A stretch of DNA of 64,000 nt from an uncultured Pseudomonadales bacterium (GTDB taxonomy: Bacteria > Patescibacteriota > Microgenomatia > UBA1400 > UBA12028). This document shows positions 19,485 to 38,851 of the stretch, piece after piece. The notes under the pieces were generated by a model, which searched no databases, was not told where the DNA came from, and saw only the letters and a list, made by a program, of their open reading frames with translations. Location: the NCBI GenBank assembly GCA_964635905.1, contig CAZWPK010000004.1:25012-89011 (forward strand). The letters are read 5' to 3'. Position 1 is the stretch's first letter. Every line of letters begins with the position of its first letter. A program made the translations under genes and the position numbers.

Positions 19485-19570
19485 CAGCGAATGGACTCTT
19501 GATAGTGGAACACATGGTCTCTTGCTATAATGAGGTGTTCTTTTCTTCCACTTAGAGAGTGAGATGTCCT

Positions 19571-20428
19571 ATGGAACAGCTGTTTACGTTGATTATTTAT
19601 CAGCCTTTTTTGAACATTTTAGTGTTCTTCTATTGGTTGCTCGGGGAAATTGGGATGAAGCCCGATATGGGTGTAGCGGTCATTCTGATGACCTTAGTGC
19701 TTCGGGTTGTAATGATTCCGCTCTCCATCGCCTCTGATCGCAGTGAACATGAACGCGAAGAAATAGGGCAACGGGCCCGGGAAATTCAAGAAAAGTATTC
19801 TTCAGACCCGGTGCGGATGAATCATGAGCTCAAGCTCATTATGCGGACCAAACCACGCATTTTGATTGCGGAGATGGTCGAGCTCTTTATCAACATTGTT
19901 ATTTTCTTTTTACTGTTGCGTCTCTTTAGCAGGGGACTGGAAGGAGCAGACCTGCATCTTTTGTATCCGATATTTCCCCACCCTCCTACACCATATAACT
20001 TAGTTTTCTTAGGGCGTTTTGATTTGACCCACCCCAATGTGTTCTTAAACTTGTTGCAGTCCTTTGTCATCTTGCTCGTCGAAGTGGCCGCAGAATACAC
20101 CTCTCCGTTTCGCAATATTTTGTCCTTACAGAAGAAAACAGAGGTTGTCAGTGTCAATCCGATTACTCGGACGGGAACGCGCTATGCCTACGAGACGCGA
20201 TCACGCATTCGGTCTCTACAATTCTTCTTACCCATCGTCTCGTTTCTCATTTTCATGTTTCTGCCTGCCGGCAAGAAACTCTTTATCGTGACGACCTTAC
20301 TTTTTAGTCTGTTTTTGATGCTCTTAAAGGCGATTCGGCGTTACTTTATTCAAGCGTTTCCCGCACCAGCCAGTGAACCAGAGCCCATCCCAACGAGTCC
20401 AGAAGCGCCGAGCTCTTCACATTCCTAA
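19571..20428 (+). CDS. yidC: Membrane protein insertase YidC/Oxa1 family (short form)
   Basis: 'IIYQPFLNILVFFYWLLG...GVAVILMTLVLRVVMIPLSI' matches the conserved YidC TM core; ATG chosen over upstream GTG. Confidence 0.7.
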   Translation: MEQLFTLIIYQPFLNILVFFYWLLGEIGMKPDMGVAVILMTLVLRVVMIPLSIASDRSEHEREEIGQRAREIQEKYSSDPVRMNHELKLIMRTKPRILIAEMVELFINIVIFFLLLRLFSRGLEGADLHLLYPIFPHPPTPYNLVFLGRFDLTHPNVFLNLLQSFVILLVEVAAEYTSPFRNILSLQKKTEVVSVNPITRTGTRYAYETRSRIRSLQFFLPIVSFLIFMFLPAGKKLFIVTTLLFSLFLMLLKAIRRYFIQAFPAPASEPEPIPTSPEAPSSSHS

Positions 20429-24268: not shown

Positions 24269-24877
24269 ATGAATATTACTTCTATCTATTTCCACTATAA
24301 AATTCCACTCAACCTAGAACGTCATATGCTGCAGGTAACTGCGGTAGGGATGTTTGTATGTGATGCCTGGAATGGTCCGGTTATAAACCGAGATCTTATT
24401 CGTTCTGCCTTACTCCTCCACGACATGGGAAATATCCTCAAATTTAAGCGACCTTTTCTAGGGGAACTTGAGGACAATGCTGCGTATTGGGAACAGGTCC
24501 GAGAGGACTATCAAGCCAAGTATGGAACAGATGTGCAGCAGGCAACGCTAGCTATTGTTCAAGAGTTAGGACTATCCGATGTGTACAATCTTCTTGTGGA
24601 AATGCGATCCGCCTGGGAACAGGAGGCAGTGGTCTCTTGGGAAACTCGGATCTGTGAGTATGCGGACTGTTGCGTCACACCCAATGGCATTGAAGGTTTT
24701 GAAACACGGATTACTGATCTAAAGAACCGCTATGATCTCGAAGAAAGTTCAACAACCATCGTACTTCTTCGAAAAAATGCAGAAATGGTTAAGGAACATG
24801 TTTCAAGTGAAGTATTAACTCTTCAGACTCAGGATTTCTCTACTGAAATGAAACGCTTAAAAGAAGTGGAAGTGTAG
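24269..24877 (+). CDS. HD-domain protein (putative phosphohydrolase), tentative
   Basis: 'ERHMLQV...LLLHDMGNILKF' fits the H...HD metal-binding motif; ATG 24269 chosen because the upstream ORF extension runs through a strong hairpin. Confidence 0.45.
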   Translation: MNITSIYFHYKIPLNLERHMLQVTAVGMFVCDAWNGPVINRDLIRSALLLHDMGNILKFKRPFLGELEDNAAYWEQVREDYQAKYGTDVQQATLAIVQELGLSDVYNLLVEMRSAWEQEAVVSWETRICEYADCCVTPNGIEGFETRITDLKNRYDLEESSTTIVLLRKNAEMVKEHVSSEVLTLQTQDFSTEMKRLKEVEV

Positions 24878-24879
24878 GG

Positions 24880-24953
24880 TGTCAGGGGCGGGCTTCGATC
24901 CCGCGACCGCCACGTTATGAATGTGGTGCTCTACCAGCTGAGCTACCCTGACA
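24880..24953 (-). tRNA. tRNA-Met (anticodon CAT)
   Basis: Reverse complement GTCAGGG-TA-GCTC-AGCTGGTA-GAGC...anticodon loop UUCAUAA...GGATCGAAGCC...CCCTGAC-A; CCA not encoded. Confidence 0.7.
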
Positions 24954-25031
24954 ATGAGTGTTGCCTAGTTTTGCCAGACAAAGTACTATTTTATACCATC
25001 AATCCGCCTTTGCGGCGGATTGAAATCATGT

Positions 25032-25099
25032 TGCGGGGCAAGGAGTCGAACCTTGTCTGCGAGATTATGAGCCTCACGTGCAGCCGTACACTACCCCGC
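25032..25099 (-). tRNA. tRNA-like gene, anticodon CAT (initiator or Ile2/lysidine type?), atypical short D-arm
   Basis: Reverse complement GCGGGGT...anticodon loop CUCAUAA...GGTTCGACTCC...GCCCCGC-A; only ~68 nt with a 3-bp D-stem; CCA not encoded. Confidence 0.45.
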
Positions 25100-25155
25100 G
25101 CGCAAGGGTACTATCGTACCACGAAGATTCTCTCTGGACAACCTGGTGTCATGTG

Positions 25156-25645: not shown

Positions 25646-26521
25646 ATGGACGACTCACGGACGTTACTCGAATTCCATCAGCAATTTTTGCAGGACTTAA
25701 AGGCCAAAGGCCGAGCCAGTGCCACAGTGATTGCCTATGGGAAAGATATCGAACAATTCTTAGAATTCCTCCAGAAACGCGAAGGGAAACAACTTCCTTC
25801 GGATGTTTCCTCAGAGGATATTGAGGAATTTAAGAAGAATCTCTCTGGAGAACGCTATACCGATAAGTCGATCTACCGCAAAATTAACTCTATCAAGTCC
25901 TATTTTCGATTTTTGCGCACTACTGGCGTGATCACGGAAAACCCGGCTAACTCGGTTTCCCATCCTAAATATGAGCTTTCAGAGCCTCGAGTGCTGACCA
26001 AATTAGAATATCGCGCCCTCCGTGATGCCTGTCGAGCGGACAAGCGTATTTCCACGATCGTGGAAGTTTTGCTGCAAACCGGGATGCGGATCAGTGAATT
26101 GGCAAACCTTGAGGTTGAAGATGTTAATCTGGATCAGCGTCAGGTGCATATTAAACCCCAGGAATCCCATCCTGGTCGCATTGTGCCTTTAAACAACGCC
26201 GCAATTACGGCACTTCGAGAATATCTCGAAATTCGACCCAAAACACGTCAAAAAACCCTGTTTGTGACGAAAACCTGTCGACCATTCTTGGTTCGCAACA
26301 TTCGTACGGCTATTGATCGGTATTTCCGCTTGGCTGGAATTAAGGATGCGAAGGTCAACGACCTCCGTCATACCTTCATTGTGCAGCAGCTAGCAGCCGG
26401 AACACCTCTGGTGTACGTCAGTCAGCTCGTAGGACACAAACGCATCACCACCACAGAAAAATACCTAAAACTTCTCCAGACTCCTGATTTTCAGACAGAG
26501 ATCAAAGTCGAAGAACTCTAA
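25646..26521 (+). CDS. Tyrosine recombinase XerC/XerD family
   Basis: N-terminal core-binding region 'FLQDLKAKGRASATVIAYGKDIEQFLEF'; catalytic 'LRHTFIVQQLAAGTPLVYVSQLVGHKRITTTEKY' (R..H..R..Y). Confidence 0.8.
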   Translation: MDDSRTLLEFHQQFLQDLKAKGRASATVIAYGKDIEQFLEFLQKREGKQLPSDVSSEDIEEFKKNLSGERYTDKSIYRKINSIKSYFRFLRTTGVITENPANSVSHPKYELSEPRVLTKLEYRALRDACRADKRISTIVEVLLQTGMRISELANLEVEDVNLDQRQVHIKPQESHPGRIVPLNNAAITALREYLEIRPKTRQKTLFVTKTCRPFLVRNIRTAIDRYFRLAGIKDAKVNDLRHTFIVQQLAAGTPLVYVSQLVGHKRITTTEKYLKLLQTPDFQTEIKVEEL

Positions 26522-26609: not shown

Positions 26610-28799
26610 GTGGGACGACGTCGAAAATCTTCACCAATAAAACTACAAATTCGCCAAGACTTGGCATATTCCATTGCAAGCCTAGTGTTTTTTGCGTTTG
26701 CAGGCCTAACAATGTTCGCCTTTCGCGGTGAAGGTCATGTCTTTTCCGTGGTCAATTCACTCCTCCGGGGCTGGTTTGGGGGAACGTCCTTATTAGTTCC
26801 GTTTCTTTTCTTTAGTGCGGGTCTCATGCTCACACGCATTAAATGGGCATTTGCCAAACCGCATGTCTTCTTAGGCGCAATGATTCTGTTTTTGGGAAGT
26901 ACGAGTCTGTTCTCCGAAGGGGCGTTTGGAATTTTAGTCTTTGAATGGCTGGCAGATACCATTTCGGCCACTGGGGCGAGTTTTGTGTCCCTGTTAGTAA
27001 TCATTGCTGGGTTTTTGATCATGACGGATACGGGACTTAACGACATTATTCACTTTATTGGCTCCATCTTTGAAGTGGTACCGAGTAAACCGGTCTTAAA
27101 CGTAAAACCCGTCAAAGGCTTGGAAGAAGAGGAAGAGGAAGGTAAAGACGATGCCAAAGCGGATTTGTTCGCGGATACCAAGATCCAAGTCTTAGATAAT
27201 CCAGTGCCTGCGCACGCAGCACCACTGGTAAAAACAGCATCCCCGGCAATGGACCCAGAAAAGAAAATCGAATTACTTAAAAAAGTAGAAGAAGCAACCG
27301 CGCCAAAAGCGCAACCGGCTAAAAAAGAACCCGATGAACAGAAATTCCAAGTCTGGACATTACCACCCGTTACATTGTTGGATCTCAAATCCGGTGGACA
27401 GGCAAATCGAGGTGATGTGCGTTCCAATGCAGAAGTGATTGAGAAAACCTTAGATTCATTTGGAATTACTGCCCGTATTGTTGAAGTAAACCGCGGTCCT
27501 GCGGTGACGCAATTTGGACTGCAAATTGGAACCGGAACGAAACTGTCAAAGATTACGGGACTGGCCAATGACTTGGCGTTAGCGTTGGCGGCTCCCACGG
27601 GTCAAATCCGTATTGAAGCTCCCATTCCAGGGAAATCCCTCGTCGGTGTGGAAATTCCCAACATCAGTAGTGAATTCGTTACCTTGCGCACCATGCTGTT
27701 ATCCGAGCAAATGAAGAAGGTGCCATCTAAATTGGCAGTTGCCTTAGGCCTAGACGTTTCTGGAAAACCGGTGGTGATTGATATTGGCAAGATGCCACAC
27801 TGTTTGATTGCCGGTGCAACCGGCTCTGGAAAATCTGTCTGTATGAATGCCTTTATCGCCAGTATCTTGTTTCGTGCCACCCCAGAAGAAGTGAAGTTTA
27901 TTATGGTAGATCCCAAGCGAGTGGAACTCACACAGTACAATGACATTCCGCATCTGTTAACCCCAGTGATCACTGATACCCAAAAAGTGTTAGGAACCTT
28001 GCAATGGGCGGTCAATGAAATGAACAATCGCTACAAGCTGTTTGCGGAAGTGGGAGTGCGTAACATTTCTGCGTACAACGAAATGGCAGGATTCCAAGCC
28101 ATGCCGTATATCGTGATCGTCATTGACGAGTTGGCGGACATCATGTTGCTGTCACCAGCCCCAGTCGAAGAAGCCATTACGCGAATCGCGCAAATGGCCC
28201 GTGCCGTCGGGATTCATTTAATCTTGGCTACGCAGCGACCGTCCGTCAACGTCATTACGGGACTGATTAAAGCTAACGTCCCAACCCGTATTGCCTTCAA
28301 TGTGTCATCGATGATTGATTCCCGTGTGATCCTCGATTCGCCAGGTGCCGAAAAATTGCTAGGTCGTGGAGATATGTTATACATCCCACCCGATCAAGCC
28401 AAACCAACCCGTGTCCAAGGAACTTTTGTGGCCGACCATGAAATTTCGCGACTGATTGAATTTATTCGTCAGCAGGGACGACAACCTACCTACGTCCATG
28501 AAATCCAAGAAAAATTCCAAACCGTTGTACCTACTTCTGCAGGAGGATCGAAAGAAGGGGGAACAGCCGATAAGGATGAACAACTGATGGTCGATGCGAT
28601 TCGCGTCATGTTGCAATACAACAAAGCCTCCGTCTCTGTCTTACAGCGACGATTATCGCTTGGATACGGACGTGCCGCACGCATCATGGACATGTTGGCC
28701 GAAGAGGGTGTGGTCGGTGACGATCAAGGCAGCAAAGGGCGTGAGATCAATGTGACCAGGGCACAAGAATTTGTTGCCCAACGTGAAGCAAACGCCTAA
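26610..28799 (+). CDS. ftsK: DNA translocase FtsK/SpoIIIE
   Basis: 4 N-terminal TMs, acidic linker, Walker A 'IAGATGSGKSVCMN', 'VIVIDELADIM', C-terminal gamma winged helix 'DEQLMVDAIRVMLQYNKASVSVLQRRLSLGYGRAARIMDMLAEEGVV'; GTG start. Confidence 0.9.
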   Translation: MGRRRKSSPIKLQIRQDLAYSIASLVFFAFAGLTMFAFRGEGHVFSVVNSLLRGWFGGTSLLVPFLFFSAGLMLTRIKWAFAKPHVFLGAMILFLGSTSLFSEGAFGILVFEWLADTISATGASFVSLLVIIAGFLIMTDTGLNDIIHFIGSIFEVVPSKPVLNVKPVKGLEEEEEEGKDDAKADLFADTKIQVLDNPVPAHAAPLVKTASPAMDPEKKIELLKKVEEATAPKAQPAKKEPDEQKFQVWTLPPVTLLDLKSGGQANRGDVRSNAEVIEKTLDSFGITARIVEVNRGPAVTQFGLQIGTGTKLSKITGLANDLALALAAPTGQIRIEAPIPGKSLVGVEIPNISSEFVTLRTMLLSEQMKKVPSKLAVALGLDVSGKPVVIDIGKMPHCLIAGATGSGKSVCMNAFIASILFRATPEEVKFIMVDPKRVELTQYNDIPHLLTPVITDTQKVLGTLQWAVNEMNNRYKLFAEVGVRNISAYNEMAGFQAMPYIVIVIDELADIMLLSPAPVEEAITRIAQMARAVGIHLILATQRPSVNVITGLIKANVPTRIAFNVSSMIDSRVILDSPGAEKLLGRGDMLYIPPDQAKPTRVQGTFVADHEISRLIEFIRQQGRQPTYVHEIQEKFQTVVPTSAGGSKEGGTADKDEQLMVDAIRVMLQYNKASVSVLQRRLSLGYGRAARIMDMLAEEGVVGDDQGSKGREINVTRAQEFVAQREANA

Positions 28800-28832
28800 C
28801 CAGTTATTTTTCACTGCATCTACAAAAGCACT

Positions 28833-29465
28833 ATGATGAAATCTGTTGGAGAATTATTGCGGTCCAATCGTGAGAAGCAAAAAAAAACGTTAGAATCGAT
28901 TGCTAAAACCACGCAAATTAAACTGGAATATTTGCAAGCTCTAGAAGAGGATGAGTTTCATCGCTTGCCCTCGATTGTTGCCGCAACTGGATTTTTGGTC
29001 ACCTATGCACAAGCCCTAGAGCTAGATCCAACGACTGCCGTTGCTCTCATGCGGCGCGACTTTCCCACGGTGCAAGATGTGTCGTATCCGATTCTAGTGG
29101 TCCGACGACATGCGCGCGAGCAACGAAAACGCATCATTGGGATCGCACTTTCATTATTAGCAGTTTTTCTAGTCTTAGTCTCTGGCTATGGATTTTGGAG
29201 CTATCAGCGCGTCCGACAAGCTCCGCGGGTGACGATTCTTTCCCCAGAAGATGGCGAACAAGTGATCTCTCCAGTGGTGATTCGAGGCAAAACAGCGTCA
29301 GATGCCATCGTCGAAATCGATGGACAATCCATCGGTGTGAATCAAGATGGAGACTTTGTGACCCAACTCGATTTAAATCCGGGCGATCATGTGATCAGTG
29401 TAAATGTGAAAAACCGTTATGGAAACGCTCAGTTAACGCAGGTCATGATCAAGGTAGAAAAGTGA
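28833..29465 (+). CDS. RodZ-like cytoskeleton protein (HTH + TM + C-terminal domain)
   Basis: XRE-type HTH 'SVGELLRSNREKQKKTLESIAKTTQIKLEYLQALEEDEF', TM 'IIGIALSLLAVFLVLVSGYGFW', beta-rich C-terminal domain. Confidence 0.55.
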   Translation: MMKSVGELLRSNREKQKKTLESIAKTTQIKLEYLQALEEDEFHRLPSIVAATGFLVTYAQALELDPTTAVALMRRDFPTVQDVSYPILVVRRHAREQRKRIIGIALSLLAVFLVLVSGYGFWSYQRVRQAPRVTILSPEDGEQVISPVVIRGKTASDAIVEIDGQSIGVNQDGDFVTQLDLNPGDHVISVNVKNRYGNAQLTQVMIKVEK

Positions 29466-29517
29466 TTCAAGACCTGTACAATACGGTGTACGTAGGGAAT
29501 ATATCTGGGAGATACTT

Positions 29518-29811
29518 ATGCAAGATCCAATTGTCATCTTATTAGTGGTTATTGTTGTACTGTTGTCCGTCATCATCGTGTCCTTTTTAGTTGTTCTGAC
29601 GATCGTGCTACTGGCGTTAAAAAAGACATTGATTCAACTGCAAGTTGCCATCGATAACGTGGAAGATACTGCACTGCGATCGTTGTCACCGCTGTTAAAT
29701 CTTCGCTCCATCGTTACCGATTTAGGTGGTTTTATGAGTGCGATTGGTTCGGTTACGTCGTTGTTTGCCAATAAGAAACGCACGAAATCACTCAAAGACC
29801 GTAACGATTAA
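29518..29811 (+). CDS. Small membrane protein (DUF948-like), hypothetical
   Basis: N-terminal TM 'IVILLVVIVVLLSVIIVSFLVVLTIVLL' then helical segment; ~97 aa. Confidence 0.35.
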   Translation: MQDPIVILLVVIVVLLSVIIVSFLVVLTIVLLALKKTLIQLQVAIDNVEDTALRSLSPLLNLRSIVTDLGGFMSAIGSVTSLFANKKRTKSLKDRND

Positions 29812-29849: not shown

Positions 29850-31733
29850 ATGACGATTTCTTTACTACGCTCTAAGTATCTGGAATTTTTTAAGGCACGT
29901 GGACATGTCATTGTTCCTAGTAGCCCGTTAGTTCCAGAGAATGATCCGACGACCTTGTTCACAGGTTCTGGGATGCAACCCATGATTACCTATCTATTAG
30001 GGGAAACCCATCCGCAAGGAACACGCATTGCAGATTCTCAAAAGTGTTTTCGTTCTCAGGATATCGAAGAAGTCGGTGACAATCGTCATACGACCTTTTT
30101 TGAAATGTTAGGTAACTGGTCCCTTGGAGATTATTTCAAAACCGAACAGATTGAGTGGATTTTTACCTTTCTGACTAGTAAGACCGAGGGATTAGGTTTA
30201 GATCCAAACCGCTTATTTGTCACGGTATTCCGTGGACAAGAAGATATCGGAATTCCCAAAGATACTCAAGCCGTGGACCTTTGGAAAACCCAGTTTAAAT
30301 CGGTGGGAATACTTGCCAAGGATATCGATCATTCGGATAGAGATGGTATGCAGGATGGACGCATTTTCTATTACGAAGCCAAAAAGAATTGGTGGTCACG
30401 TGCTGGGGCTCCGGAGAATATGCCGGTAGGAGAACCGGGAGGACCGGATAGTGAAGTGTTTTATGATTTTGGAGCAGATCGAAAGTTTCATGAGACGTCG
30501 AAATGGAAAGATGAGCCGTGCCATGTGAACTGTGACTGTGGCAGATTTATGGAGATCTGTAACAGTGTGTTCATGACCTACCGGAAAACGGAAGCAGGAT
30601 TTGTGCCCTTAGATCAACAAAATATTGATTTTGGCGGAGGACTGGAACGCATGATTGCAGCGGTGGAGAATACCGTAGACGTCTTTGAAACCGACGCGTT
30701 TTCAACCTTAATTGCAAAAATCGAAGGTCTGTCAGGGAAATCCTATGACAGTAGTGAAACCGTGACGCGATCCATGCGCGTGATTGCAGACCATCTCAAA
30801 GCTGCTGTGATGTTAGCCTCCGATGGAGTCTTTCCATCTAATAAAGGTCAGGGGTATTTTGCCCGTAGACTTTTGCGCCGCTGTATTCGTGTTGCGCATA
30901 CGCTCGGAATTGAAACACAGTTCTTATCAACGTTAGTTCCAGTGGTCATCGATGCCTACAAAGAAGCCTATCCCAATCTCGAGAAGCATTCACAACTAAT
31001 TGTGGAACAAATCGATCAAGAAGAAACCAAGTTTAGAAAAACGCTTGCCAAGGGACTCAAGGAGATTGAAAAAGTCGGAACCTTGGATGGCAATAGTGCT
31101 TTTAAAATGTACGAAACCTATGGCTTCCCACTAGAACTCACGCAAGAAATTGCGATCGAACGCGGACAGCACGTGGATACCGCGCAGTTCCAAGCTGAGT
31201 TTAACAAGCACAAAGAACTGTCTCGTTCTGCTTCCTCAGGAATGTTTAAGGGTGGTCTGGCAGACCAATCCGATATCACCATCAAATACCATACAGCCAC
31301 CCATCTATTGCAAGCAGCACTCCGAAAAATCCTTGGAACCCATGTGCAACAAAAGGGAAGTAACCTCACCGGAGAACGGCTGCGGTTTGATTTCTCTCAT
31401 CCTGCAGCTCTATCCGATGAAGAAAAGAAACAGGTAGAAGATCAGATCAACAGCTGGATAACACAAGATTTGCCGGTTACCAAAGAAATGATGTCAAAGC
31501 AAAAGGCTCTAGATTCTGGAGCTATTGCGTTCTTTATTGAAAAGTATCCCGACGAAGTCTCCGTGTATACGATCGGAAGTGATCCGAAAACAAATTGGAT
31601 TTCGAAGGAACTCTGTGGTGGACCTCATGTCGAACACACCGGAGTAATTGGTCCGATACAAATCTACAAAGAAGAAGCCGTATCTGCAGGGACGAGACGG
31701 ATTTATATTCGACTGAATAGTAAAGTCAACTAA
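29850..31733 (+). CDS. alaS: Alanine--tRNA ligase, short form (catalytic + tRNA-binding + editing domains, no C-Ala domain)
   Basis: 'KYLEFFKARGHVIVPSSPLVPENDPTTLFTGSGMQP', 'FEMLGNWSLGDYFK', editing 'HTATHLLQAALRKILGTH' and 'CGGPHVEHTG'; ends at 627 aa. Confidence 0.9.
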   Translation: MTISLLRSKYLEFFKARGHVIVPSSPLVPENDPTTLFTGSGMQPMITYLLGETHPQGTRIADSQKCFRSQDIEEVGDNRHTTFFEMLGNWSLGDYFKTEQIEWIFTFLTSKTEGLGLDPNRLFVTVFRGQEDIGIPKDTQAVDLWKTQFKSVGILAKDIDHSDRDGMQDGRIFYYEAKKNWWSRAGAPENMPVGEPGGPDSEVFYDFGADRKFHETSKWKDEPCHVNCDCGRFMEICNSVFMTYRKTEAGFVPLDQQNIDFGGGLERMIAAVENTVDVFETDAFSTLIAKIEGLSGKSYDSSETVTRSMRVIADHLKAAVMLASDGVFPSNKGQGYFARRLLRRCIRVAHTLGIETQFLSTLVPVVIDAYKEAYPNLEKHSQLIVEQIDQEETKFRKTLAKGLKEIEKVGTLDGNSAFKMYETYGFPLELTQEIAIERGQHVDTAQFQAEFNKHKELSRSASSGMFKGGLADQSDITIKYHTATHLLQAALRKILGTHVQQKGSNLTGERLRFDFSHPAALSDEEKKQVEDQINSWITQDLPVTKEMMSKQKALDSGAIAFFIEKYPDEVSVYTIGSDPKTNWISKELCGGPHVEHTGVIGPIQIYKEEAVSAGTRRIYIRLNSKVN

Positions 31734-31884
31734 ATTGTTTTTTTCTTACGTACATCTATACTAACTAAATTATGACCGATACTGACAATTCCTACAAAAG
31801 CATGATAAGAGATCTGAATGATCGAAAACGATTGATAGAAAAGATACTTCACCCCAAGGTTCCACTCGAGAAGCTGCGCTTACA

Positions 31885-32172
31885 ATGGAGCTAAATGATG
31901 ATGAAGCAAAACAAAAAGAGGTTGAATTTGTTGATGAACAGGAGAAGAGGAAATCAAACGTTTTTTCAAGAATTGTAGATAGACTACGACATAGGGATGA
32001 AGGCAAAACCAGTGAACCGACAATTCGACAAAAATTAAACTCTGAGCTGGTGGAGCGGTCTGGATCGTCAATATTAAATACGATCCGAAGCAGCAGGGAT
32101 TTTGATGAAATTCGGAGTTTTTCCGCGCTTGATGCAACCTATACTTTGCCTGATCAAATTGTTAAAACTTAA
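31885..32172 (+). CDS. Small hypothetical protein (possibly a gene fragment)
   Basis: 95 aa ORF in an AT-rich stretch; a 40-aa ORF in another frame directly precedes it. Confidence 0.2.
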   Translation: MELNDDEAKQKEVEFVDEQEKRKSNVFSRIVDRLRHRDEGKTSEPTIRQKLNSELVERSGSSILNTIRSSRDFDEIRSFSALDATYTLPDQIVKT

Positions 32173-32634
32173 ATGCGGAACAATTATCACTACTAGAGAG
32201 TAGAATTTATGATTCTTGTGATTCGCGGATTAGGCAACTTCACTTCGAAGTTGCAGGTACTTTTATTGAACAAATAACTGAAGCATCGACTGTACCTGAG
32301 CTGGCTCGAGTCGTTGATATGTATGCAGATCAAATTAACTATGGTGACTCTTACAGCATCATTTTGGATGCAGCAATAAAAAGAAGATTTTCAACAACAA
32401 ACATTGTACATCCAAGCGCGGAAGATATTTATAACACTCGAGACATTGTTGAACGCAAACTCCAGGAAAAAAGACGAGAACTTACATCAAAGACAAAATA
32501 GATAAAGTTGCGAAGTTTTGTGATTTTTATCAATAAACGCATTGTCAAGATTTGTACGTCTGCAGTTGATTTCTTCCCTCATTTCTTCATAATGAGTAGT
32601 ACTCCACTAGCAACTGGAGGGTTCGTTCTACCCT

Positions 32635-34650
32635 ATGAAACTGCCATTTCTTGGCTCCTCTCAACCAGTCCATTCAATCTATTCCATCGCCATCAGTAGT
32701 GGTGTCGTTTGGGCTTCCAGTTGGCATGTAGAGGGAAGTGAGATTAAAGTTGATTCGATTTCTGAACCCATCGAATGGGATAGTAATGATGAAGAAACCT
32801 TGCTAGAAGCAGTAGATACTGCGATAGCAAACTTTCCCGCAGCCGCGGAAATCTTATTTGCTCTTCCTGATGATTGGGTCAATGGTCAGGGAATTGCCCA
32901 AACAAAAAAACCGCTATTACGTACCCTCACGCAAAAGTTAGAACTCCATTCTGTGGGATTTGTCGTGACAGCAGAAGCCGTCATCGCTCGGCTCACGGAA
33001 CAATCCAATACTCCTTTTAGTGCGGTTTGTGTGTTTGTCGAAGAACAATCATTTGTCGTCTCATGTGTGCGTCATGGCCAATCGTCATCACTGATTCGGG
33101 TTGGGAGAAGTGGAGAGAGCGTGAATGATTTGATGGAGGCATTTAGCCGACTCAAAGCAACTGATCTTCCATCCCTCTTAGTTCTCTCAACCTTGTCTGC
33201 TTCCGACGAAGAGTTGCAGGAACTCGCCAATGAGATCACCTCCAATAACTGGAATCCATCGTTATTTCAACAGTTGCCAAAGATCCTCCATATTGAGCCT
33301 AAACAAGTACTCATTGCGGTGTCGCAGACTGGTGGCAAGGAAGTGGCAAAAGTCCTTGGGTTTGCAACTGCCAAACCAGAGGCTGCCCATACACCCCCAA
33401 GCTTCACTCCCGTCGTTGCACCCCAGCAGGAAGAAACTGAAGAGCCAACTCAAGAAGAAGAGCTCGTTCACGACGATGATATGGATGGTCAACGGGCATC
33501 GTTGTTATCCAGACTTCCAAAACCAGTTCTTGTGGGTGGAGTGATTCTTCTTCTCCTGGGTGTAGCCGGAGCACTTGCATCGTTTTTGTTCTTGCCGAAT
33601 CTAACCAAAGCCACGGTGGCAATTACCTCCAAGTCTAATCAGCTTTCCATGAGTCAGACCGTTATTCTAGATCCAAAAGCAGAATCACCTACAGAGTCCA
33701 CACTTCCGGTGAGCCTAAGTTCCACCCAAGTTACCGGTTCCAAAGAAGTCCCGACCACAGGGAAGAAAACCGTGGGAGATAAAGCGAAAGGAACAGTCAC
33801 AATCTATAACAAGACGTCCCAAGCCAAAAGCTTTCCAGCGGGATCCACAGTCAAGTTTGGAAAGTTGTCTTTTGTGACGGATGAAGAAGTGAGTGTTGCT
33901 AGTGCAAGTTCGACGATGAGTGAGACTGTCCATGGGAAAGCCACAGTGAAGGCGACGGCATCCGTACCTGGAGAAGAGAGTAACATTGGATCTAATCAAG
34001 AGCTCATTGTGGGCACCTATGACCAATCGGCGTTCATTGCCAAAAGCGAAACAGCCTTTATAGGTGGTAACAGTAAGAGTGTAACCTCGGTAACGCAAAA
34101 AGATCAGGACGAAGCGGTCAAAGCACTAACAGTCGATTTGAAAGAACAAGCCAAAGAGGCGGTCAAACTTACAGCCAATGAGGTTCAAGAGGTGATTGTT
34201 CTCGATGATCTCGTTGTTACTTCAAAAACCTTTAACCAGCCAGTGGGAGCGGAAGCGAGCTCTGTTTCGGTCACCATGAATGCAAGTGCCTCTGGGTTGC
34301 TGTATACCAAGGGTCAAATGCAATCCTTTGCCAAAGAGAAACTCCAAATCCAAGCTGCGGGGCAGTCCCTTGTGGAACCAAGCGTCACCGTCGAAGTGAC
34401 TGGACAAAAACTACTGGGGAAACAGCAGGTGGAACTTACCCTTGCATTGTCTGCACAAAGTAAGCCAACCGTCGATCCCACCTCGATCGCAAAAATACTG
34501 GCTGGAAAAAATCTAGAAGAAAGTAAAGCCTTTTTGGATTCTCAGGATTCGATTGCATCCTACACCATAACCACATCGCCCTCTTTCTTACGTGTGTTCA
34601 CATCCAAGCTACCTAAGAATGTCGACCATATTACCGTCACCGTTGACTAG
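32635..34650 (+). CDS. Large bitopic membrane protein: cytoplasmic N-domain (possibly actin-like FtsA/PilM-like), TM, Ser/Thr-rich extracellular domain
   Basis: TM 'VLVGGVILLLLGVAGALASFLFL' at ~aa 300; N-terminal 'SIYSIAISSGVVWASSW' resembles the phosphate-1 beta-hairpin of FtsA/PilM; C-terminal 340 aa beta-rich, S/T/K-rich. Confidence 0.45.
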   Translation: MKLPFLGSSQPVHSIYSIAISSGVVWASSWHVEGSEIKVDSISEPIEWDSNDEETLLEAVDTAIANFPAAAEILFALPDDWVNGQGIAQTKKPLLRTLTQKLELHSVGFVVTAEAVIARLTEQSNTPFSAVCVFVEEQSFVVSCVRHGQSSSLIRVGRSGESVNDLMEAFSRLKATDLPSLLVLSTLSASDEELQELANEITSNNWNPSLFQQLPKILHIEPKQVLIAVSQTGGKEVAKVLGFATAKPEAAHTPPSFTPVVAPQQEETEEPTQEEELVHDDDMDGQRASLLSRLPKPVLVGGVILLLLGVAGALASFLFLPNLTKATVAITSKSNQLSMSQTVILDPKAESPTESTLPVSLSSTQVTGSKEVPTTGKKTVGDKAKGTVTIYNKTSQAKSFPAGSTVKFGKLSFVTDEEVSVASASSTMSETVHGKATVKATASVPGEESNIGSNQELIVGTYDQSAFIAKSETAFIGGNSKSVTSVTQKDQDEAVKALTVDLKEQAKEAVKLTANEVQEVIVLDDLVVTSKTFNQPVGAEASSVSVTMNASASGLLYTKGQMQSFAKEKLQIQAAGQSLVEPSVTVEVTGQKLLGKQQVELTLALSAQSKPTVDPTSIAKILAGKNLEESKAFLDSQDSIASYTITTSPSFLRVFTSKLPKNVDHITVTVD

Positions 34651-34665
34651 TCTTCTGCCTGTATT

Positions 34666-35505
34666 TTGAGTACACTGAATGCGTATCCTCCTATGGCAGT
34701 CATTCGTTACACAAAACACCGTCCTGTTTCTCGACCACCAGTACGAACCAAGATCAAACGCGAACGGATGATCAAATTATTTGTGTTGCATCGATTAGCA
34801 CCCTTCTTTCTCATGGCCACCGGTGTATTCTTACTGGTGAGTGTGGTGTTTCCCATTTTAAGCTCGGAATTGAATCGGTCGACGTCGATTCAAGCTGGAG
34901 CAACACAGAATCTCTCTGAATCCGAATTGGCAATGGATTCGATATCTCCGCGAGAATATTTATTACCCACTCCCATTCCGACACCCATCATCGTTTCGGA
35001 CACTCTCGACTTTACCGATCTCTCTAACTGGTTTCCAGATTCGGTTCTTCCTATCGTTGAACCAAAAGAAGAAAAGCGCTATTTGATTTCCATTCCAAAA
35101 GTGAATATTGAAGATGCAGAAGTAGTCGTGGGTGGAAAAGAATTGGATGATCACTTAATCCAATATCCAGGGACATCTTTACCTGGTGATTTTGGAGCTC
35201 CGGTCATCTTTGGTCACTCGGTGTTACGTTCGTTCTATAATCCGGCAAAATCGAATCCACGTCGGTACATTTCCATTTTCTCAAAGATTATGACCTTATC
35301 AAAAGGTGATGAAATTCTCGTAAATGAAGATGGGGTGCACTATCGCTATCAGGTGCTCTCCAAAACCGAAGTTCAACCAACAGATTTATTCATTCTAGAG
35401 CAGCAACGAGATAGCCGACTTCTTAAATTAGTTACCTGTGTTCCGGAAGGGACCTATTTGCGTCGCGGAGTGGTGACGGCAGTCCTTGTAGAATCGAAGC
35501 GATAA
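34666..35505 (+). CDS. Sortase family transpeptidase
   Basis: N-terminal TM; catalytic His 'APVIFGHSVL', Cys 'LKLVTCVPEG', Arg 'LRRGVV' in canonical order. Confidence 0.75.
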   Translation: MSTLNAYPPMAVIRYTKHRPVSRPPVRTKIKRERMIKLFVLHRLAPFFLMATGVFLLVSVVFPILSSELNRSTSIQAGATQNLSESELAMDSISPREYLLPTPIPTPIIVSDTLDFTDLSNWFPDSVLPIVEPKEEKRYLISIPKVNIEDAEVVVGGKELDDHLIQYPGTSLPGDFGAPVIFGHSVLRSFYNPAKSNPRRYISIFSKIMTLSKGDEILVNEDGVHYRYQVLSKTEVQPTDLFILEQQRDSRLLKLVTCVPEGTYLRRGVVTAVLVESKR

Positions 35506-35565: not shown

Positions 35566-35976
35566 ATGAACTATCTTGCCCTCGATTATGGTACTCGTCG
35601 CATTGGCGTGGCTATCGCGACGACACCCTTAGCAGAACCACTCGTCATTGTGCAAAATAAACTGGCAAATGACCAAGCGATTATTACGGACTCCGCACTG
35701 CAATCGATCCTCGACTTAATCAAGCGTCATCAGATTGAAAAAATTGTGGTCGGTGTTTCCGAAGGGAAGACCGCCGAAAAAACACTGCAATTTTGTGAAC
35801 TGTTATCCAAAAAGACAGAGATTGTGATTGAACAAGTGGATGAGACGCTCTCCTCCTTTCATGCCGACGAACTGAGTCAGTTTCAAAAGAAATCGAAACG
35901 CGAAGCCGATAAAGATCACATAGCAGCAGCAAAATTCTTACAAGACTATTTAGATCTCCTACCGCAGACAATCTAA
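35566..35976 (+). CDS. ruvX: Putative pre-16S rRNA nuclease / Holliday-junction-resolvase-like YqgF (RuvX)
   Basis: 'YLALDYGTRRIGVAIATTPLAEPL' RNase H-like N-terminus of YqgF. Confidence 0.8.
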   Translation: MNYLALDYGTRRIGVAIATTPLAEPLVIVQNKLANDQAIITDSALQSILDLIKRHQIEKIVVGVSEGKTAEKTLQFCELLSKKTEIVIEQVDETLSSFHADELSQFQKKSKREADKDHIAAAKFLQDYLDLLPQTI

Positions 35977-36018
35977 GGGTTGTTTGATCGGGAGTTTTTT
36001 TTTACACTGTCACTTCAC

Positions 36019-36990
36019 ATGAAACGAACACCAATCTTGATAGGGGTATTCCTTTTTCTGGGGCTAGTAGTCATTACTGGCGTTGGACTTGTAGCTTTTC
36101 TATTTTTTCCGAAAGCACGAACTGCACCAACCCAAAAAATCGTCATCAAAAAGGGAGACACCCTTTTTAAAGTTGCAGCGCAGTTGGAAGAGGCTGGAAT
36201 TGTTCGCACTGCTTGGGGGATCAAAGTGGCAGCCAAAATAGGAACAGCTCCAACCATTCATCCGGGAACCTATGAACTATCACCGTCCATGAGCCCACAA
36301 CAAATTCTTGATACATTATCGACAGAACCAGAAGAAGCATGGGTGACTTTTTTAGAGGGATTGAGAGTTGAAGAATACGCGCAGGAAATGGAAAAGAATT
36401 TTCCCGACACTTTTAATACGCAGGAATTTTTGACGTTGGCCAAAGCCAAAGAAGGAAGGTTATTTCCGGATACCTATTTATTAGAAAAAAATGTTTCCCC
36501 ACCAATGTTGATTTCATTGCTGTCCAATACGTTTGATAAACGCTATGCCCAAGCAGGTGAGGGTGGAATGGTTGATACAGTACTGACTCAACAGCAATTA
36601 GTTGTATTGGCGTCGTTGCTAGAACGTGAGGCAAGAGGTGAAGACTCAATGAAAATGGTTGCTGGAATTCTGTTAAACCGACTTCGTATTGGGATGCCTC
36701 TGCAAGTGGATGCAACGCTACAGTATGCCAAAGGATATGATCGTAAGGCAGAGACGTGGTGGTCTACACCCAAATCGGAAGACAAAGCCATTGATAGCCC
36801 GTTTAATACCTACAAAAACACAGGCTTACCTCCCAGTCCGATTTGTAATCCTGGGCTACTGGCACTAAAAGCTGCCCTCTCTCCCACAAAGTCCAATTAT
36901 TTGTATTACATTTCCGATACGAAAGGTGCGATGCATTACGCGACGACCTATCCTGAACATCAAAAAAATATTGAAACCTACTTAAAATGA
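36019..36990 (+). CDS. mltG: Endolytic murein transglycosylase MltG (YceG family)
   Basis: N-terminal TM, 'GTYELSPSMSPQQILDTL', 'LQVDATLQYAKG', 'YLYYISDTKGAMHYATTYPEHQKN' YceG signatures. Confidence 0.8.
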   Translation: MKRTPILIGVFLFLGLVVITGVGLVAFLFFPKARTAPTQKIVIKKGDTLFKVAAQLEEAGIVRTAWGIKVAAKIGTAPTIHPGTYELSPSMSPQQILDTLSTEPEEAWVTFLEGLRVEEYAQEMEKNFPDTFNTQEFLTLAKAKEGRLFPDTYLLEKNVSPPMLISLLSNTFDKRYAQAGEGGMVDTVLTQQQLVVLASLLEREARGEDSMKMVAGILLNRLRIGMPLQVDATLQYAKGYDRKAETWWSTPKSEDKAIDSPFNTYKNTGLPPSPICNPGLLALKAALSPTKSNYLYYISDTKGAMHYATTYPEHQKNIETYLK

Positions 36991-37214
36991 GCGACGCTTC
37001 AGAACCAATTTTTATCACTCCTAAAACAGATCTTGTTCTCCTGGAAGATCGCTATGGTCTAGACGCGCTTCGTGGGGCAATGGATGATCCGAAACTCCCT
37101 GCAGAGATTCAATCAATTGTAGCGTTCTACGTACTATCAACTTCGAGTGGAACAGAGTTGAAGCGAGCAGTTGTTTCTGAATATCCAGCTGGATGGAAAC
37201 AGAGACGTCAATAG
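36987..37214 (+). CDS. Small hypothetical protein
   Basis: 75 aa ORF ATGA-coupled to mltG; acidic, no motif. Confidence 0.3.
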   Translation: MSDASEPIFITPKTDLVLLEDRYGLDALRGAMDDPKLPAEIQSIVAFYVLSTSSGTELKRAVVSEYPAGWKQRRQ

Positions 37215-37285
37215 TTCTTAGAGAATGTATCTGTGATGGTAGACACAGGAAATATTCAGCTTCTAAGCGTACAATAGCATACGTG

Positions 37286-38851
37286 ATGATGCTTAAACTC
37301 TTGATTCCCGTATTGGCACTTCTTGGTCTACTTGATGCCGGGTACCTTACCTATGAAAAAATGATGGGAATCGTTCCTCCCTGCAGCCCATCCTTTGACT
37401 GTGAGACGGTATTGCAGAGTTCTTGGTCATCCATCGGACCCATTCCTGTCTCGGTGATGGGGATGCTTTACTATACTGTCATCTTGTTTTTGGGAAGCCT
37501 TCTTGTTCTGGATGTGAAAAACATTCCATTTCGAGGACGTGGTGTCTCCCTATTTCAGATCGTGCGATTCGTCTCTACTGTTGGCTTTTTAAGCTCAATG
37601 GGGTTTGTGTATCTGATGGCGGTTGTGATTCAAGCCTGGTGTCCCTATTGTGTAATCTCCGCTGGAATTAGTACGGTTCTCTTCCTGATTGTGTATCTCT
37701 TGTCGCGCAGTCGCACCCAAAGTACCCAAAGAGTCTCAGAGTATCCCTTAAATCTGGCATTCTTTGCTTTTGTCTATCAGGTTCTCTTAAAACCAATTTT
37801 ATTTCGGTTTAACCCGGAAACGATTCATCATCTCTTTGTTCGGTTTGGAAAAATACTCGGGATGACTCCAGCAACGCGGGCATTAACACGTTGGTGTTTT
37901 TCCTATCCCAATTCTGTCCCCATTGTTCTTGCTGGTATCGATTTCACAAACAAAGTTGGATTATCCGCAGGGTTTGACTATGATGCGGACCTTACGCAGA
38001 TTCTTCCGGACATCGGTTTTGGGTTTGCAACCCTGGGTACAGTGACATTGCACCCATATGAGGGGAACACCCGACCAATGCTCACGCGCTTTCCAGACTC
38101 AAAAGCGCTTTTGGTAAATAAAGGCTTTAAGTCCATCGGAGCCCCTGCGGTGATTGCGAAACTAGAAGGGCAGACCTTTCGAATTCCCATTGGTATTAGT
38201 ATCGGGAGCACCAATAAGATTTTTAACTCCTCCAAGGAACAGATCGATGATGTGGTAAAAACTTTTCGGCTGTTTGAAGCTTCCAGTGTTGCGCACTCCT
38301 ACTATGAATTGAATATCAGTTGTCCCAACACCAAAGGAGGACAACCCTTTACGGATGCGAAGCGCTTAGATGCACTGCTCAAAGCCTTACGAGTGCTCCA
38401 GATTCAAAAGCCCGTGTTCGTCAAACTTCCCATCGATCTTGCGGATGGCTTAAGTCGGGCGACTACCCATACACAGCTACTCTCCCTGGTAGACCGAATG
38501 TCAAAAGAACCCTGGATCGTTGGCCTCATCAGTGGCAATTTAACTAAAGATCATGAAAATACTTCCGTTTCCACTTCCGACCGCACACAATGGAAGCAAC
38601 GCAAAGGAGGAATTAGCGGGAAACCTACCTTTGAACGCTCTAATCTCCTTATTTCCGCACTCCGCAAACGCTTTAGGTCTCGTTTTCTTATTATTGGGAC
38701 AGGAGGGGTTTTTTCCGGCGAGGATGCGCTAACAAAGCTTTCATCGGGAGCGGACCTTGTGCAGTTAATTACAGGAATGATCTATCAAGGCCCGCAGGTA
38801 ATTGGAGATATTAATTGGGTCCTCTCGGGAAAAGACTCTAAAAAAAAGTGA
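37286..38851 (+). CDS. Fusion protein: N-terminal VKOR (vitamin K epoxide reductase/DsbB-like) membrane domain + C-terminal family-2-like dihydroorotate dehydrogenase (FMN TIM barrel)
   Basis: VKOR: loop Cys pair 'PPCSPSFDC', TM CXXC 'AWCPYCVISAG'. DHODH: 'LFRFNPETIHHLFVRF' (quinone-site helices), 'GIDFTNKVGLSAGFD', 'GFGFATLGTVTLHPYEGNTRPMLTRF', 'LVNKGFKSIG', 'ELNISCPNTKG', 'GGISGKP', 'IIGTGGVFSGEDA...LVQLITGMIYQGP' match E. coli PyrD block by block. Confidence 0.75.
   Translation: MMLKLLIPVLALLGLLDAGYLTYEKMMGIVPPCSPSFDCETVLQSSWSSIGPIPVSVMGMLYYTVILFLGSLLVLDVKNIPFRGRGVSLFQIVRFVSTVGFLSSMGFVYLMAVVIQAWCPYCVISAGISTVLFLIVYLLSRSRTQSTQRVSEYPLNLAFFAFVYQVLLKPILFRFNPETIHHLFVRFGKILGMTPATRALTRWCFSYPNSVPIVLAGIDFTNKVGLSAGFDYDADLTQILPDIGFGFATLGTVTLHPYEGNTRPMLTRFPDSKALLVNKGFKSIGAPAVIAKLEGQTFRIPIGISIGSTNKIFNSSKEQIDDVVKTFRLFEASSVAHSYYELNISCPNTKGGQPFTDAKRLDALLKALRVLQIQKPVFVKLPIDLADGLSRATTHTQLLSLVDRMSKEPWIVGLISGNLTKDHENTSVSTSDRTQWKQRKGGISGKPTFERSNLLISALRKRFRSRFLIIGTGGVFSGEDALTKLSSGADLVQLITGMIYQGPQVIGDINWVLSGKDSKKK

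Follow-up and report, generated by a model that had tools for sequence, protein, structure and literature searches.

The window, that is, the whole 64,000-nucleotide stretch analysed here, carries a gene for a 671-aa bitopic membrane protein, called X in the following, and a sortase gene between alaS and ruvX-mltG. The features of this region, with their positions in the window, are:

29850-31733, + strand: alaS, a short alanyl-tRNA synthetase of 627 aa (Pfam tRNA-synt_2c, 7.2e-122; tRNA_SAD, 5e-15)
31772-32501, + strand: frameshifted copy, as assembled, of a 243-aa lineage-specific gene, with two 1-bp deletions
32635-34650, + strand: X, a bitopic membrane protein of 671 aa that belongs to a very large family of Patescibacteria
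32674-33357, + strand: cytoplasmic minimal ASKHA domain of X (residues 14-241)
33385-33522, + strand: disordered acidic/proline-rich cytoplasmic linker of X (about residues 251-296), from composition and pLDDT
33523-33594, + strand: single transmembrane helix of X (residues 297-320, N-in/C-out), hydrophobic stretch PVLVGGVILLLLGVAGALASFLFL
33595-34647, + strand: extracellular domain of X (residues 321-671), a baseplate-J/gp47-like beta-barrel region followed by alpha/beta modules
34666-35505, + strand: membrane-anchored sortase, 279-aa ORF (Pfam Sortase, E=6.9e-18), probable start at ATG 34693
35566-35976, + strand: ruvX (yqgF; Pfam RuvX, 1.1e-22)
35980-36990, + strand: mltG, YceG endolytic transglycosylase (Pfam YceG, 4.4e-74)

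The original prediction regarded X and the sortase as inserted into an alaS-ruvX-mltG neighbourhood. Their position between alaS and ruvX-mltG stands, but the insertion does not, as the order is standard in comparable Patescibacteria loci; the idea arose because the comparison was made with Firmicutes instead of the organism's own lineage. The synteny comparison proposed to date the event, when run on 85 related Patescibacteria loci, found the pair to be ordinary core genes, the outcome that the prediction had itself set against an insertion. Among the loci that can be judged, which provide the denominators given here, the sortase follows X in all cases (81/81), and alaS precedes X, with the same orientation, in 66 of 69. 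Downstream of X one finds mltG in 56 of 64 loci and ruvX in 38 of 64, so that the coupling of X with the sortase is tighter than its link to either of these genes. A median of 3 bp separates X from the sortase; the gap is at most 30 bp in 64 of 75 loci, and overlaps of 4 and 8 bp are frequent. The order alaS-X-sortase-ruvX-mltG(-rpoB) is found at protein identities of 55%, 28%, and 24%, and a Saccharimonadales genome has alaS-X-sortase-mltG, with ruvX missing. The 93 homologues of X all come from genomes of CPR bacteria (Patescibacteria); the family comprises 13,309 cluster representatives at E<=1e-3, of which 5,457 remain at E<=1e-30, and all of the best 150 are full length. X and the sortase have the same GC content as their flanks. 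A scan for promoters and terminators gave fewer sites than shuffled controls and is uninformative on operon structure. In conclusion, the window, which comes from a Woesebacteria-like member of Patescibacteria, shows in alaS-X-sortase-ruvX-mltG the normal and ancestral arrangement of this radiation, with X and the sortase as a conserved core pair. X may stand beside alaS, ruvX, and mltG for historical reasons and not for functional ones.

The spacer between alaS and X (31734-32634) is poorer in GC (0.36-0.40) than the flanks (about 0.46), and its three-frame translation gives ORF fragments in three frames, in agreement with the AT-rich, fragmented stretch of about 900 bp reported from the sequence. 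The 243-aa gene whose frameshifted copy lies there is intact in a related locus (L005:5138-5869). The two copies are 95% identical in DNA and their alignment shows two single-base gaps, the deletions being near 31825 and 32167, beside A-runs. This gene matches no Pfam family. No RNA family of Rfam was found between 29000 and 37500, which excludes a riboswitch or another known RNA in the spacer. The alaS-to-X slot differs among close relatives, the variation being confined to the small upstream gene.

The AF2 model of X has a pLDDT of 89.9 over the full length and 96.0 for the ectodomain. It shows a folded N-domain (residues 14-241) and a beta-rich ectodomain (321-671), and residues 258-297 have pLDDT values below 50. 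The linker is longer in homologues of 780-785 aa than in the protein of the window, and it is the variation in linker length that makes the proteins of the family range from 671 to about 820 aa. The hydrophobic stretch PVLVGGVILLLLGVAGALASFLFL is a helix in the model and is preceded on its N-side by R287, R293, and K296. The single transmembrane helix and the Ser/Thr/Lys-rich, beta-rich ectodomain that had been read from the sequence are thus both recovered (residues 297-320 and 321-671). The ectodomain contains 13% S, 12% T, 11% V, and 9% K, and the C-terminus of the protein (..LPKNVDHITVTVD) is a folded beta-strand. A motif conserved in the family, TTGKKxVGDKAKGTVTIYN, was considered as a candidate Lys-Asn isopeptide or pilin-like acceptor lysine.

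The N-domain is formed of two RNase-H-like lobes, each with the succession beta-beta-beta-alpha-beta-alpha-beta-alpha, which places it among ASKHA domains. Its nearest structures are FtsA and PilM, although targets of 333-383 residues align to it over 206-211 residues only. The resemblance to FtsA/PilM noticed in the sequence therefore extends to an actin-like fold, but not to the phosphate-binding hairpin on which it was based. A consensus of 87 family members lacks the phosphate-1 DxG, phosphate-2 DxGG, and adenosine GG motifs: its first hairpin reads Y.L.L.L, the lobe-II hairpin has no DxGG, and no GG precedes the last helix. Residues 1-300 match no Pfam or NCBIfam model at E<=0.1, including those of FtsA (PF14450), PilM_2 (PF11104), and MreB (PF06723). 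PilM and FtsA have 330-420 residues, whereas the N-domain of X has about 230, and its AF2 model contains neither the 1C (SHS2) nor the 2B subdomain insert. PilM keeps its ATP-binding residues and X has lost them. The anchors also differ: FtsA uses an amphipathic helix, PilM a bound PilN peptide, and X a true transmembrane helix. The family consensus has a conserved N-terminal M-x-L-P-F motif, which could be a docking peptide.

A close parallel in design is GspL/EpsL of type II secretion, a scaffold in which a nucleotide-free actin-fold cytoplasmic domain is followed by one transmembrane helix and an extracytoplasmic domain. X has in common with it the actin-fold domain inside, the single helix, and the domain outside. 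However, the ectodomain of GspL/EpsL is a small ferredoxin-like dimerisation domain, whereas that of X has about 350 residues and is baseplate-J-like; a small ferredoxin-like domain after a coiled coil, as in PilN and GspL, is not present in it. Nor are there secretion ATPase or pseudopilin genes near X, the partner gene being a sortase. Hence, the PilN-like part of the original prediction has to be replaced by a module of the baseplate-J/gp47 type.

The ectodomain of X has the wedge-protein fold, with a beta-barrel inserted in a G3P-like domain, plus gp6 domain III. The signature motifs of baseplate J lie at residues 374-480 (nt 33754-34074). A profile of the family matches TRI-2 of diffocin with E=2.9e-4, and both have the G..N and F.GG motifs. 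Some members of the family also pass the threshold for PHROG_6 (1e-8). Among the homologues, two (P0052, 26.6 bits, and P0083, 21.4 bits) exceed the cut-off of the Pfam Baseplate_J model (21.1), over model positions 20-110 of 255 only, 17 of 93 have precomputed PF04865 matches, and NCBI names homologues "baseplate J/gp47 family protein". The X protein of the window itself has no match to Baseplate_J (PF04865); direct searches with it gave a sub-threshold DUF5033 in Pfam, nothing in NCBIfam or PHROGs, and noise in phmmer against PDB. With tblastn, the ectodomain has no match in 50,697 phage records, so that the baseplate link is one of remote homology and not of recent transfer. Partners expected in contractile tails (gp25/gp48-like, tube, sheath, and spike proteins) were found neither in the window nor among the called genes of loci L001-L006. 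The wedges baseplate J/gp47 of Mu, gp6 of T4, TRI-2 of diffocin, and Pvc11-Afp11 consist, like the ectodomain of X, of a beta-barrel with flanking subdomains, but X is membrane-anchored, fused to an actin-fold domain, and encoded in a housekeeping operon. In conclusion, the beta-barrel of the ectodomain is a distant homologue of the wedge proteins of contractile tails (baseplate J, gp6, gp47). Taken as a whole, X is very probably a type-II bitopic protein made of a minimal ASKHA domain, a variable acidic linker, a transmembrane helix, and a baseplate-like ectodomain.

The sortase most likely starts at ATG 34693, because its homologues have about 270 aa. It has a transmembrane segment at residues 44-65 and an intact triad of His184 (GHSV), Cys258 (LVTCVP), and Arg266/267 (LRRG), as had been proposed from the HSV, TCVP, and RRG motifs. 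It reaches no class-specific cut-off of NCBIfam for classes A-F; its best scores are 37.3 (class C) and 30.8 (class E), for cut-offs of 160, and it therefore belongs to a CPR-specific clade. Across CPR it has more than 2,300 homologues, which are 45-65% identical to it, and the closest solved sequence is SrtA of B. anthracis (E=1.6e-4). The Sortase domain, N-terminal membrane anchor, and His-Cys-Arg triad are also those of housekeeping sortases of classes A and E, from which this clade differs by its constant translational coupling to X. When LPXTG-type sorting signals were sought in the ORFs of the window and in 86 loci, all matches were spurious, being antisense or polytopic, and no substrate was found in the window or its flanks. 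X was considered as a substrate and rejected: it has the wrong topology (N-in/C-out), a folded C-terminus, and no LPXTG/LAXTG signal with a C-terminal membrane anchor, consistent with the earlier view that it is not an obvious one.

A split counterpart of X exists in Southlakia epibionticum, where the order is alaS, SEML1_0656 (a "PilM" ASKHA protein), SEML1_0655 ("baseplate J/gp47"), ruvX, mltG (PMC10633639, Tables S1/S2). The two genes (427 aa and 556 aa, respectively) occupy the slot of X, which is a single gene, and encode, according to their annotation, the same two modules. The pairing of an actin fold with baseplate J thus recurs as two adjacent genes. Both are flagged as core and as enriched in Patescibacteria (PMC10633639, Tables S1/S2). 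The Tn-seq calls are NE/ES/ES for SEML1_0655 and NE/NE/GD for SEML1_0656 (PMC10633639), and the baseplate-J gene is essential (PMC10633639; Wang et al. 2023). SEML1_0656, which NCBI names "pilus assembly protein PilM", gives a Pfam FtsA match and X does not; the genome also has a separate FtsA (SEML1_0174) and a type IV pilus PilM (SEML1_0104) (PMC10633639). Its sortases, SEML1_0327 and SEML1_0711, lie elsewhere, neither adjoining the baseplate-J gene (PMC10633639), and hence the partnership of X with a sortase is not obligatory in gene order. In the literature on Patescibacteria and Saccharibacteria no paper was found that discusses the X family; the supplementary tables of PMC10633639 list its counterpart, on which the text of that paper is silent.

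Overall, these data are probably best explained by an ancestral core pair in which X is a non-catalytic envelope scaffold working with the sortase. As to mechanism, gene adjacency and coupling tentatively suggest the following. X would be a non-enzymatic transmembrane scaffold, following the logic of GspL or of PilM-PilN. Its pseudo-ATPase actin-fold domain would dock a cytoplasmic partner, and its ectodomain, possibly oligomeric like its wedge relatives, would form a platform at the interface of membrane and wall. This platform might position or regulate the co-translated housekeeping sortase and thereby control the attachment of surface proteins.

A scaffold of the divisome or elongasome is a less likely role. 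X would then be an FtsA paralogue with a transmembrane tether, linking cytoplasmic machinery to wall remodelling in the manner of FtsQ/DivIB or together with MltG, and the sortase would be a mere co-transcribed neighbour. In its favour, the conserved block around X also holds ftsK and mltG, together with small membrane proteins and a RodZ-like HTH_25 protein, and the split homologue of S. epibionticum is essential though no sortase adjoins it. However, the N-domain, reduced to some 230 residues with every ATP motif missing, lacks the 1C and 2B subdomains that FtsA uses for its partners and FtsZ, and X is more constantly associated with the sortase than with mltG or ruvX.

Fusions of PilM and PilN of the GspL type are known, and the original prediction took X for such a component; a role of this kind in a type IV pilus or competence machine is improbable. 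It would agree with the name given by NCBI to the split homologue and with the wide distribution of type IV pili in CPR (PMC6744442). Yet the ectodomain is baseplate-J-like instead of having the ferredoxin-like fold of PilN/PilO, the N-domain has neither a PilM_2 match nor the ATP-binding residues of PilM, and no pil genes occur in any of the 85 loci. Moreover, CPR genomes encode separate canonical PilM, PilN, and PilO proteins (PMC6744442), and S. epibionticum has its distinct type IV pilus PilM.

A recent or mobile insertion, leaving a prophage or contractile-injection remnant and an accessory sortase that break alaS-ruvX-mltG, could account for the AT-rich spacer with its broken ORFs, the baseplate-J-like features, and the varying alaS-X slot, but is very improbable given that the pair keeps its position at 24-55% protein identity in Microgenomatia-type and Saccharimonadales genomes, matches the GC content of its flanks, adjoins no tail, sheath, or tube genes or integrase, and has no match in the phage records, the small upstream gene alone being variable.

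Within the reading of X and the sortase as an ancestral pair with a scaffold role, a more speculative and rather doubtful extension can be made. A wedge module of a phage baseplate might have been domesticated early in the history of Patescibacteria and linked, across the membrane, with a degenerate actin-fold domain of the FtsA/PilM kind. Fused or split, the two modules would form an essential lineage-specific envelope machine of a kind not previously described. This could be an extracellular platform, ring-like in shape, which together with the sortase builds or positions surface structures that these ultrasmall episymbionts require for division or host attachment.

A large part of bacterial diversity belongs to Patescibacteria, whose lineage-specific core proteins are mostly without known function. 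X is such a protein, with thousands of sequence clusters, an interpretable architecture, and a homologue that is essential in the sole Tn-seq data set at hand. It probably exemplifies the recruitment of a structural fold of phages to a cellular housekeeping role, and its locus provides a testable entry to the Gram-positive-like envelope and the sortase-dependent surface organisation of CPR cells.

The genes around X, the 671-residue bitopic membrane protein, are all read in the same direction:

29850-31733, +, alaS (ORF map; Pfam AlaRS, 7e-122)
32635-34650, +, X, 671-aa ORF (ORF map)
34666-35505, +, sortase, 279-aa ORF (ORF map; Pfam Sortase, 6.9e-18)
35566-35976, +, ruvX (ORF map; Pfam RuvX, 1e-22)
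35980-36990, +, mltG (ORF map; Pfam YceG, 4e-74)

X matches no Pfam family above threshold. The sortase has an N-terminal TM segment and the residues His184, Cys258 (in LVTCVP), and Arg266/267; its homologs are ~270 aa long, which makes the ATG at 34693 its probable true start. Every element of the original sequence-level description is found (ORF map, Pfam, residues, spacer GC).

In Firmicutes and Actinobacteria, alaS, ruvX, and mltG are contiguous, and relative to these clades X and the sortase of Patescibacteria do sit within the block. However, what the original prediction took for an insertion is the standard position of the pair in Patescibacteria, where the synteny data give it as ordinary core genes at this place in the loci that can be compared. 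The 93 homologs of X retrieved by word index are from Patescibacteria without exception, and an exhaustive search with the family profile yields 13,309 cluster representatives at E ≤ 1e-3, of which 5,457 remain at E ≤ 1e-30; the best 150 matches are full length throughout (718–822 aa). The order alaS-X-sortase-ruvX-mltG(-rpoB) is kept in neighborhoods at 55%, 28%, and 24% identity, and a Saccharimonadales genome has the matching order alaS-X-sortase-mltG, without ruvX. A scan of one genome per species gave 80 further loci, and a tblastn-based synteny script counted the neighbors over 85 non-redundant loci, with loci that can be judged as denominators. The sortase is immediately 3′ of X in 81/81 loci (80 in the script total, plus L079, where the two genes overlap by 40 bp), alaS lies 5′ of X on the same strand in 66 of 69, and mltG and ruvX are 3′ of X in 56/64 and 38/64, respectively. 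The named genomes with the locus are Woese-, Pace-, Collier-, Gottesman-, Levy-, Roizman-, and Cerribacteria, and Saccharimonadales. Judged from gene order, the arrangement goes back to the ancestor of much of the radiation. The distance between the X stop and the first sortase ATG (median 3 bp; ≤30 bp in 64/75 loci) and the frequent 4- and 8-bp overlaps point to translational coupling. Among L007–L086, loci with X homologs, the gene order is unmistakably CPR, yet many of the GenBank MAG titles name "uncultured Pseudomonadales," "Gammaproteobacteria," "Methylococcaceae," "Nevskiaceae," "Methylomirabilota," or "Bathyarchaeia archaeon." Such names are apparently placeholders or taxonomic errors, or else the contigs were mis-binned.

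Variability is limited to the small slot between alaS and X, which differs among close relatives. As described originally, the 900-bp spacer is AT-rich (GC 0.36–0.40 vs ~0.46 in the flanks) with fragmented ORFs; three-frame translation gives a single reading frame interrupted twice. In L005, where X is 92% identical, this position holds an intact 243-aa gene (L005:5138-5869) that matches no Pfam family and is 95% identical in DNA. Compared with it, the window gene (31772-32501, +) has two 1-bp deletions beside A-runs, at ~31825 and ~32167; the fragments would then be a small lineage-specific gene that has become a pseudogene or was misassembled. In L006 (91% identity) the slot is occupied by an unrelated 693-aa gene (L006:3851-5932) coding for a helical protein without Pfam family, and in L001 (55% identity) it is empty.

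Several other genes of the window have notable features. AlaRS is short (627 aa in the window, 611–634 aa in related loci), and Pfam finds in it the catalytic domain and the editing-associated tRNA_SAD domain alone; the C-terminal part of the long AlaRS of model bacteria is apparently missing. Upstream, a conserved block (26610-29811, +) of ftsK, a RodZ-like protein, and a 97-aa membrane protein accompanies alaS-X-sortase in many loci, at times inverted. The individual features are:

28833-29465, +, RodZ-like HTH_25 protein with C-terminal Glucodextran_B/Big-type domain
29518-29811, +, 97-aa membrane protein
3224-3931, -, second protein with a Glucodextran_B domain
24877-25100, -, two tRNA-Met (CAT) genes 76 bp apart, just ahead of ftsK and a gene for a XerC/D-type recombinase (25646-26521)
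4075-5924, -, transketolase, split into two overlapping ORFs
5070-5924, -, its N-terminal TPP-binding half
4075-5145, -, its Pyr/C-terminal half
18171-19484, -, 437-aa protein whose last 60 residues match Pfam T4SS_pilin (1.8e-8), adjoining yidC (19559-20428) and an SPFH protein
37193-38851, +, 552-aa protein just 3′ of mltG

The 437-aa protein could be a component of the unusual type IV secretion system of CPR bacteria that is known from Saccharibacteria. In L001 and L005, orthologs of the 552-aa protein combine a VKOR domain (PF07884) with a dihydroorotate-dehydrogenase-like one (PF01180); a membrane quinone reductase is thus fused to a DHOD-type flavoenzyme, which is unusual.

The AlphaFold2 model of X (87-sequence alignment, mean pLDDT 89.9) has four parts:

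residues 14-123 and 130-241, two lobes, each beta-beta-beta-alpha-beta-alpha-beta-alpha, the signature of the actin-like superfamily (ASKHA)
residues 258-297, disordered and acidic (pLDDT <50)
residues 297-320, hydrophobic helix, with preceding Arg/Lys that indicate an N-in/C-out topology
residues 321-671, ectodomain rich in beta

The predicted actin-like N-domain is thus borne out by the lobes of the model, but not its phosphate-binding hairpin: the phosphate-1 DxG, phosphate-2 DxGG, and adenosine GG motifs are all absent from the family consensus. HMMs of FtsA, PilM, and MreB find no match in X, and the domain lacks 1C/SHS2 and 2B subdomains, as it has merely ~230 residues. On the model and the consensus, it is a minimal and probably nucleotide-free actin-fold interaction module, resembling in this the cytoplasmic domain of GspL, which is of the nucleotide-free actin-fold type. 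Beyond its folded domains, the family has two short conserved motifs: an N-terminal M-x-L-P-F-(F)-x-x-x-K peptide (residues 1–10, low pLDDT) ahead of the ASKHA core, and an FGF motif in the disordered linker (~256–259), degenerate (SFTP) in the window protein. By analogy with the PilN N-terminus that binds PilM, both may be docking peptides.

The ectodomain, which the original prediction suggested could be PilN-like, is instead similar to baseplate J/gp47 proteins (PF04865). It matches cyanophage A-1(L) gp31 (12.7), diffocin TRI-2 (12.5), P1 BplA (12.1), Mu gp47 (11.4), phiCD508 Baseplate J (11.3), XM1 gp16 (10.4), Pvc11 (9.4), and Afp11 (6.7), with weaker matches to the G3P pilus-binding domain, aminomethyltransferase/EF-Tu domain-2 barrels, SIMPL/BP26, and FtsA-1C. 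The family profile matches the wedge protein TRI-2 (E = 2.9e-4), sharing iG...Nl and F.GG, two invariant motifs of the family. The homologs P0052 and P0083 exceed the Pfam Baseplate_J gathering score, but just over model positions 20–110 of 255, and match PHROG_6 "baseplate wedge subunit" (~1e-8); X of the window is itself under every threshold (Pfam, PHROG). A precomputed PF04865 hit exists in 17/93 homologs, and in NCBI some homologs bear the name "baseplate J/gp47 family protein." X as part of a prophage was rejected, given that tblastn against phage genomes gives no match and no further tail genes are found nearby. By profile and motif similarity, the ectodomain is a distant, domain-level baseplate-J homolog in a cellular context.

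In Southlakia epibionticum, according to supplementary tables in Wang et al. (2023; PMC10633639), the order is alaS (SEML1_0657), two genes, ruvX (SEML1_0654), and mltG (SEML1_0653). SEML1_0656 is a 427-aa ASKHA protein named as PilM. SEML1_0655 is a 556-aa "baseplate J/gp47 family protein" with DPAM domains aminomethyltransferase barrel, G3P pilus-binding, and gp6 domain III. Both SEML1_0656 and SEML1_0655 are flagged as core and Patescibacteria-enriched, with Tn-seq calls NE/NE/GD and NE/ES/ES, respectively, and no sortase adjoins them. Therefore, the pairing of actin fold and baseplate J recurs in Saccharibacteria as two adjacent genes and matters for growth. The main text of that work does not discuss the two genes, and "baseplate" has 0 occurrences in it. 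According to Méheust et al. (2019; PMC6744442), the sortase family is CPR-enriched and occurs in nearly all Microgenomates; they leave its neighbor X unmentioned, and a full-text literature search found no paper on the X family.

The identity and architecture proposed for X are very likely correct; how it acts is more tentative. Taking as given its architecture, topology, loss of ATP motifs, very wide conservation, and tight coupling to a sortase with its catalytic residues intact, we suggest that X might be a non-enzymatic transmembrane scaffold following GspL or PilM-PilN logic. Its cytoplasmic actin-fold module would dock a partner, and its ectodomain may oligomerize like wedge proteins into a platform at the membrane/wall interface, which would hold the co-translated sortase in position or regulate it. 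A division or elongation scaffold without sortase involvement is less probable, even though it would fit the FtsA-like fold, the neighboring ftsK, RodZ-like, and mltG genes, and the sortase-free arrangement of Saccharibacteria. A type IV pilus component, close to one option of the original prediction, is improbable: the fold of the ectodomain speaks against it, no pil genes lie nearby, and canonical PilM/N/O exist elsewhere; S. epibionticum has a separate T4P PilM (0104), and also a separate FtsA beside FtsZ (0174) (PMC10633639). A recent mobile insertion of X and sortase is contradicted by synteny and very hard to credit.

In conclusion, nothing sets this locus apart within its huge family, which databases name and nobody has characterized. 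We regard the architecture of X, an actin-fold pseudo-ATPase with one TM and a baseplate-J-like ectodomain, coupled to a sortase, as a variant of the PilM/GspL-type bitopic scaffold, and the locus as a testable entry point into the envelope biology of the CPR.
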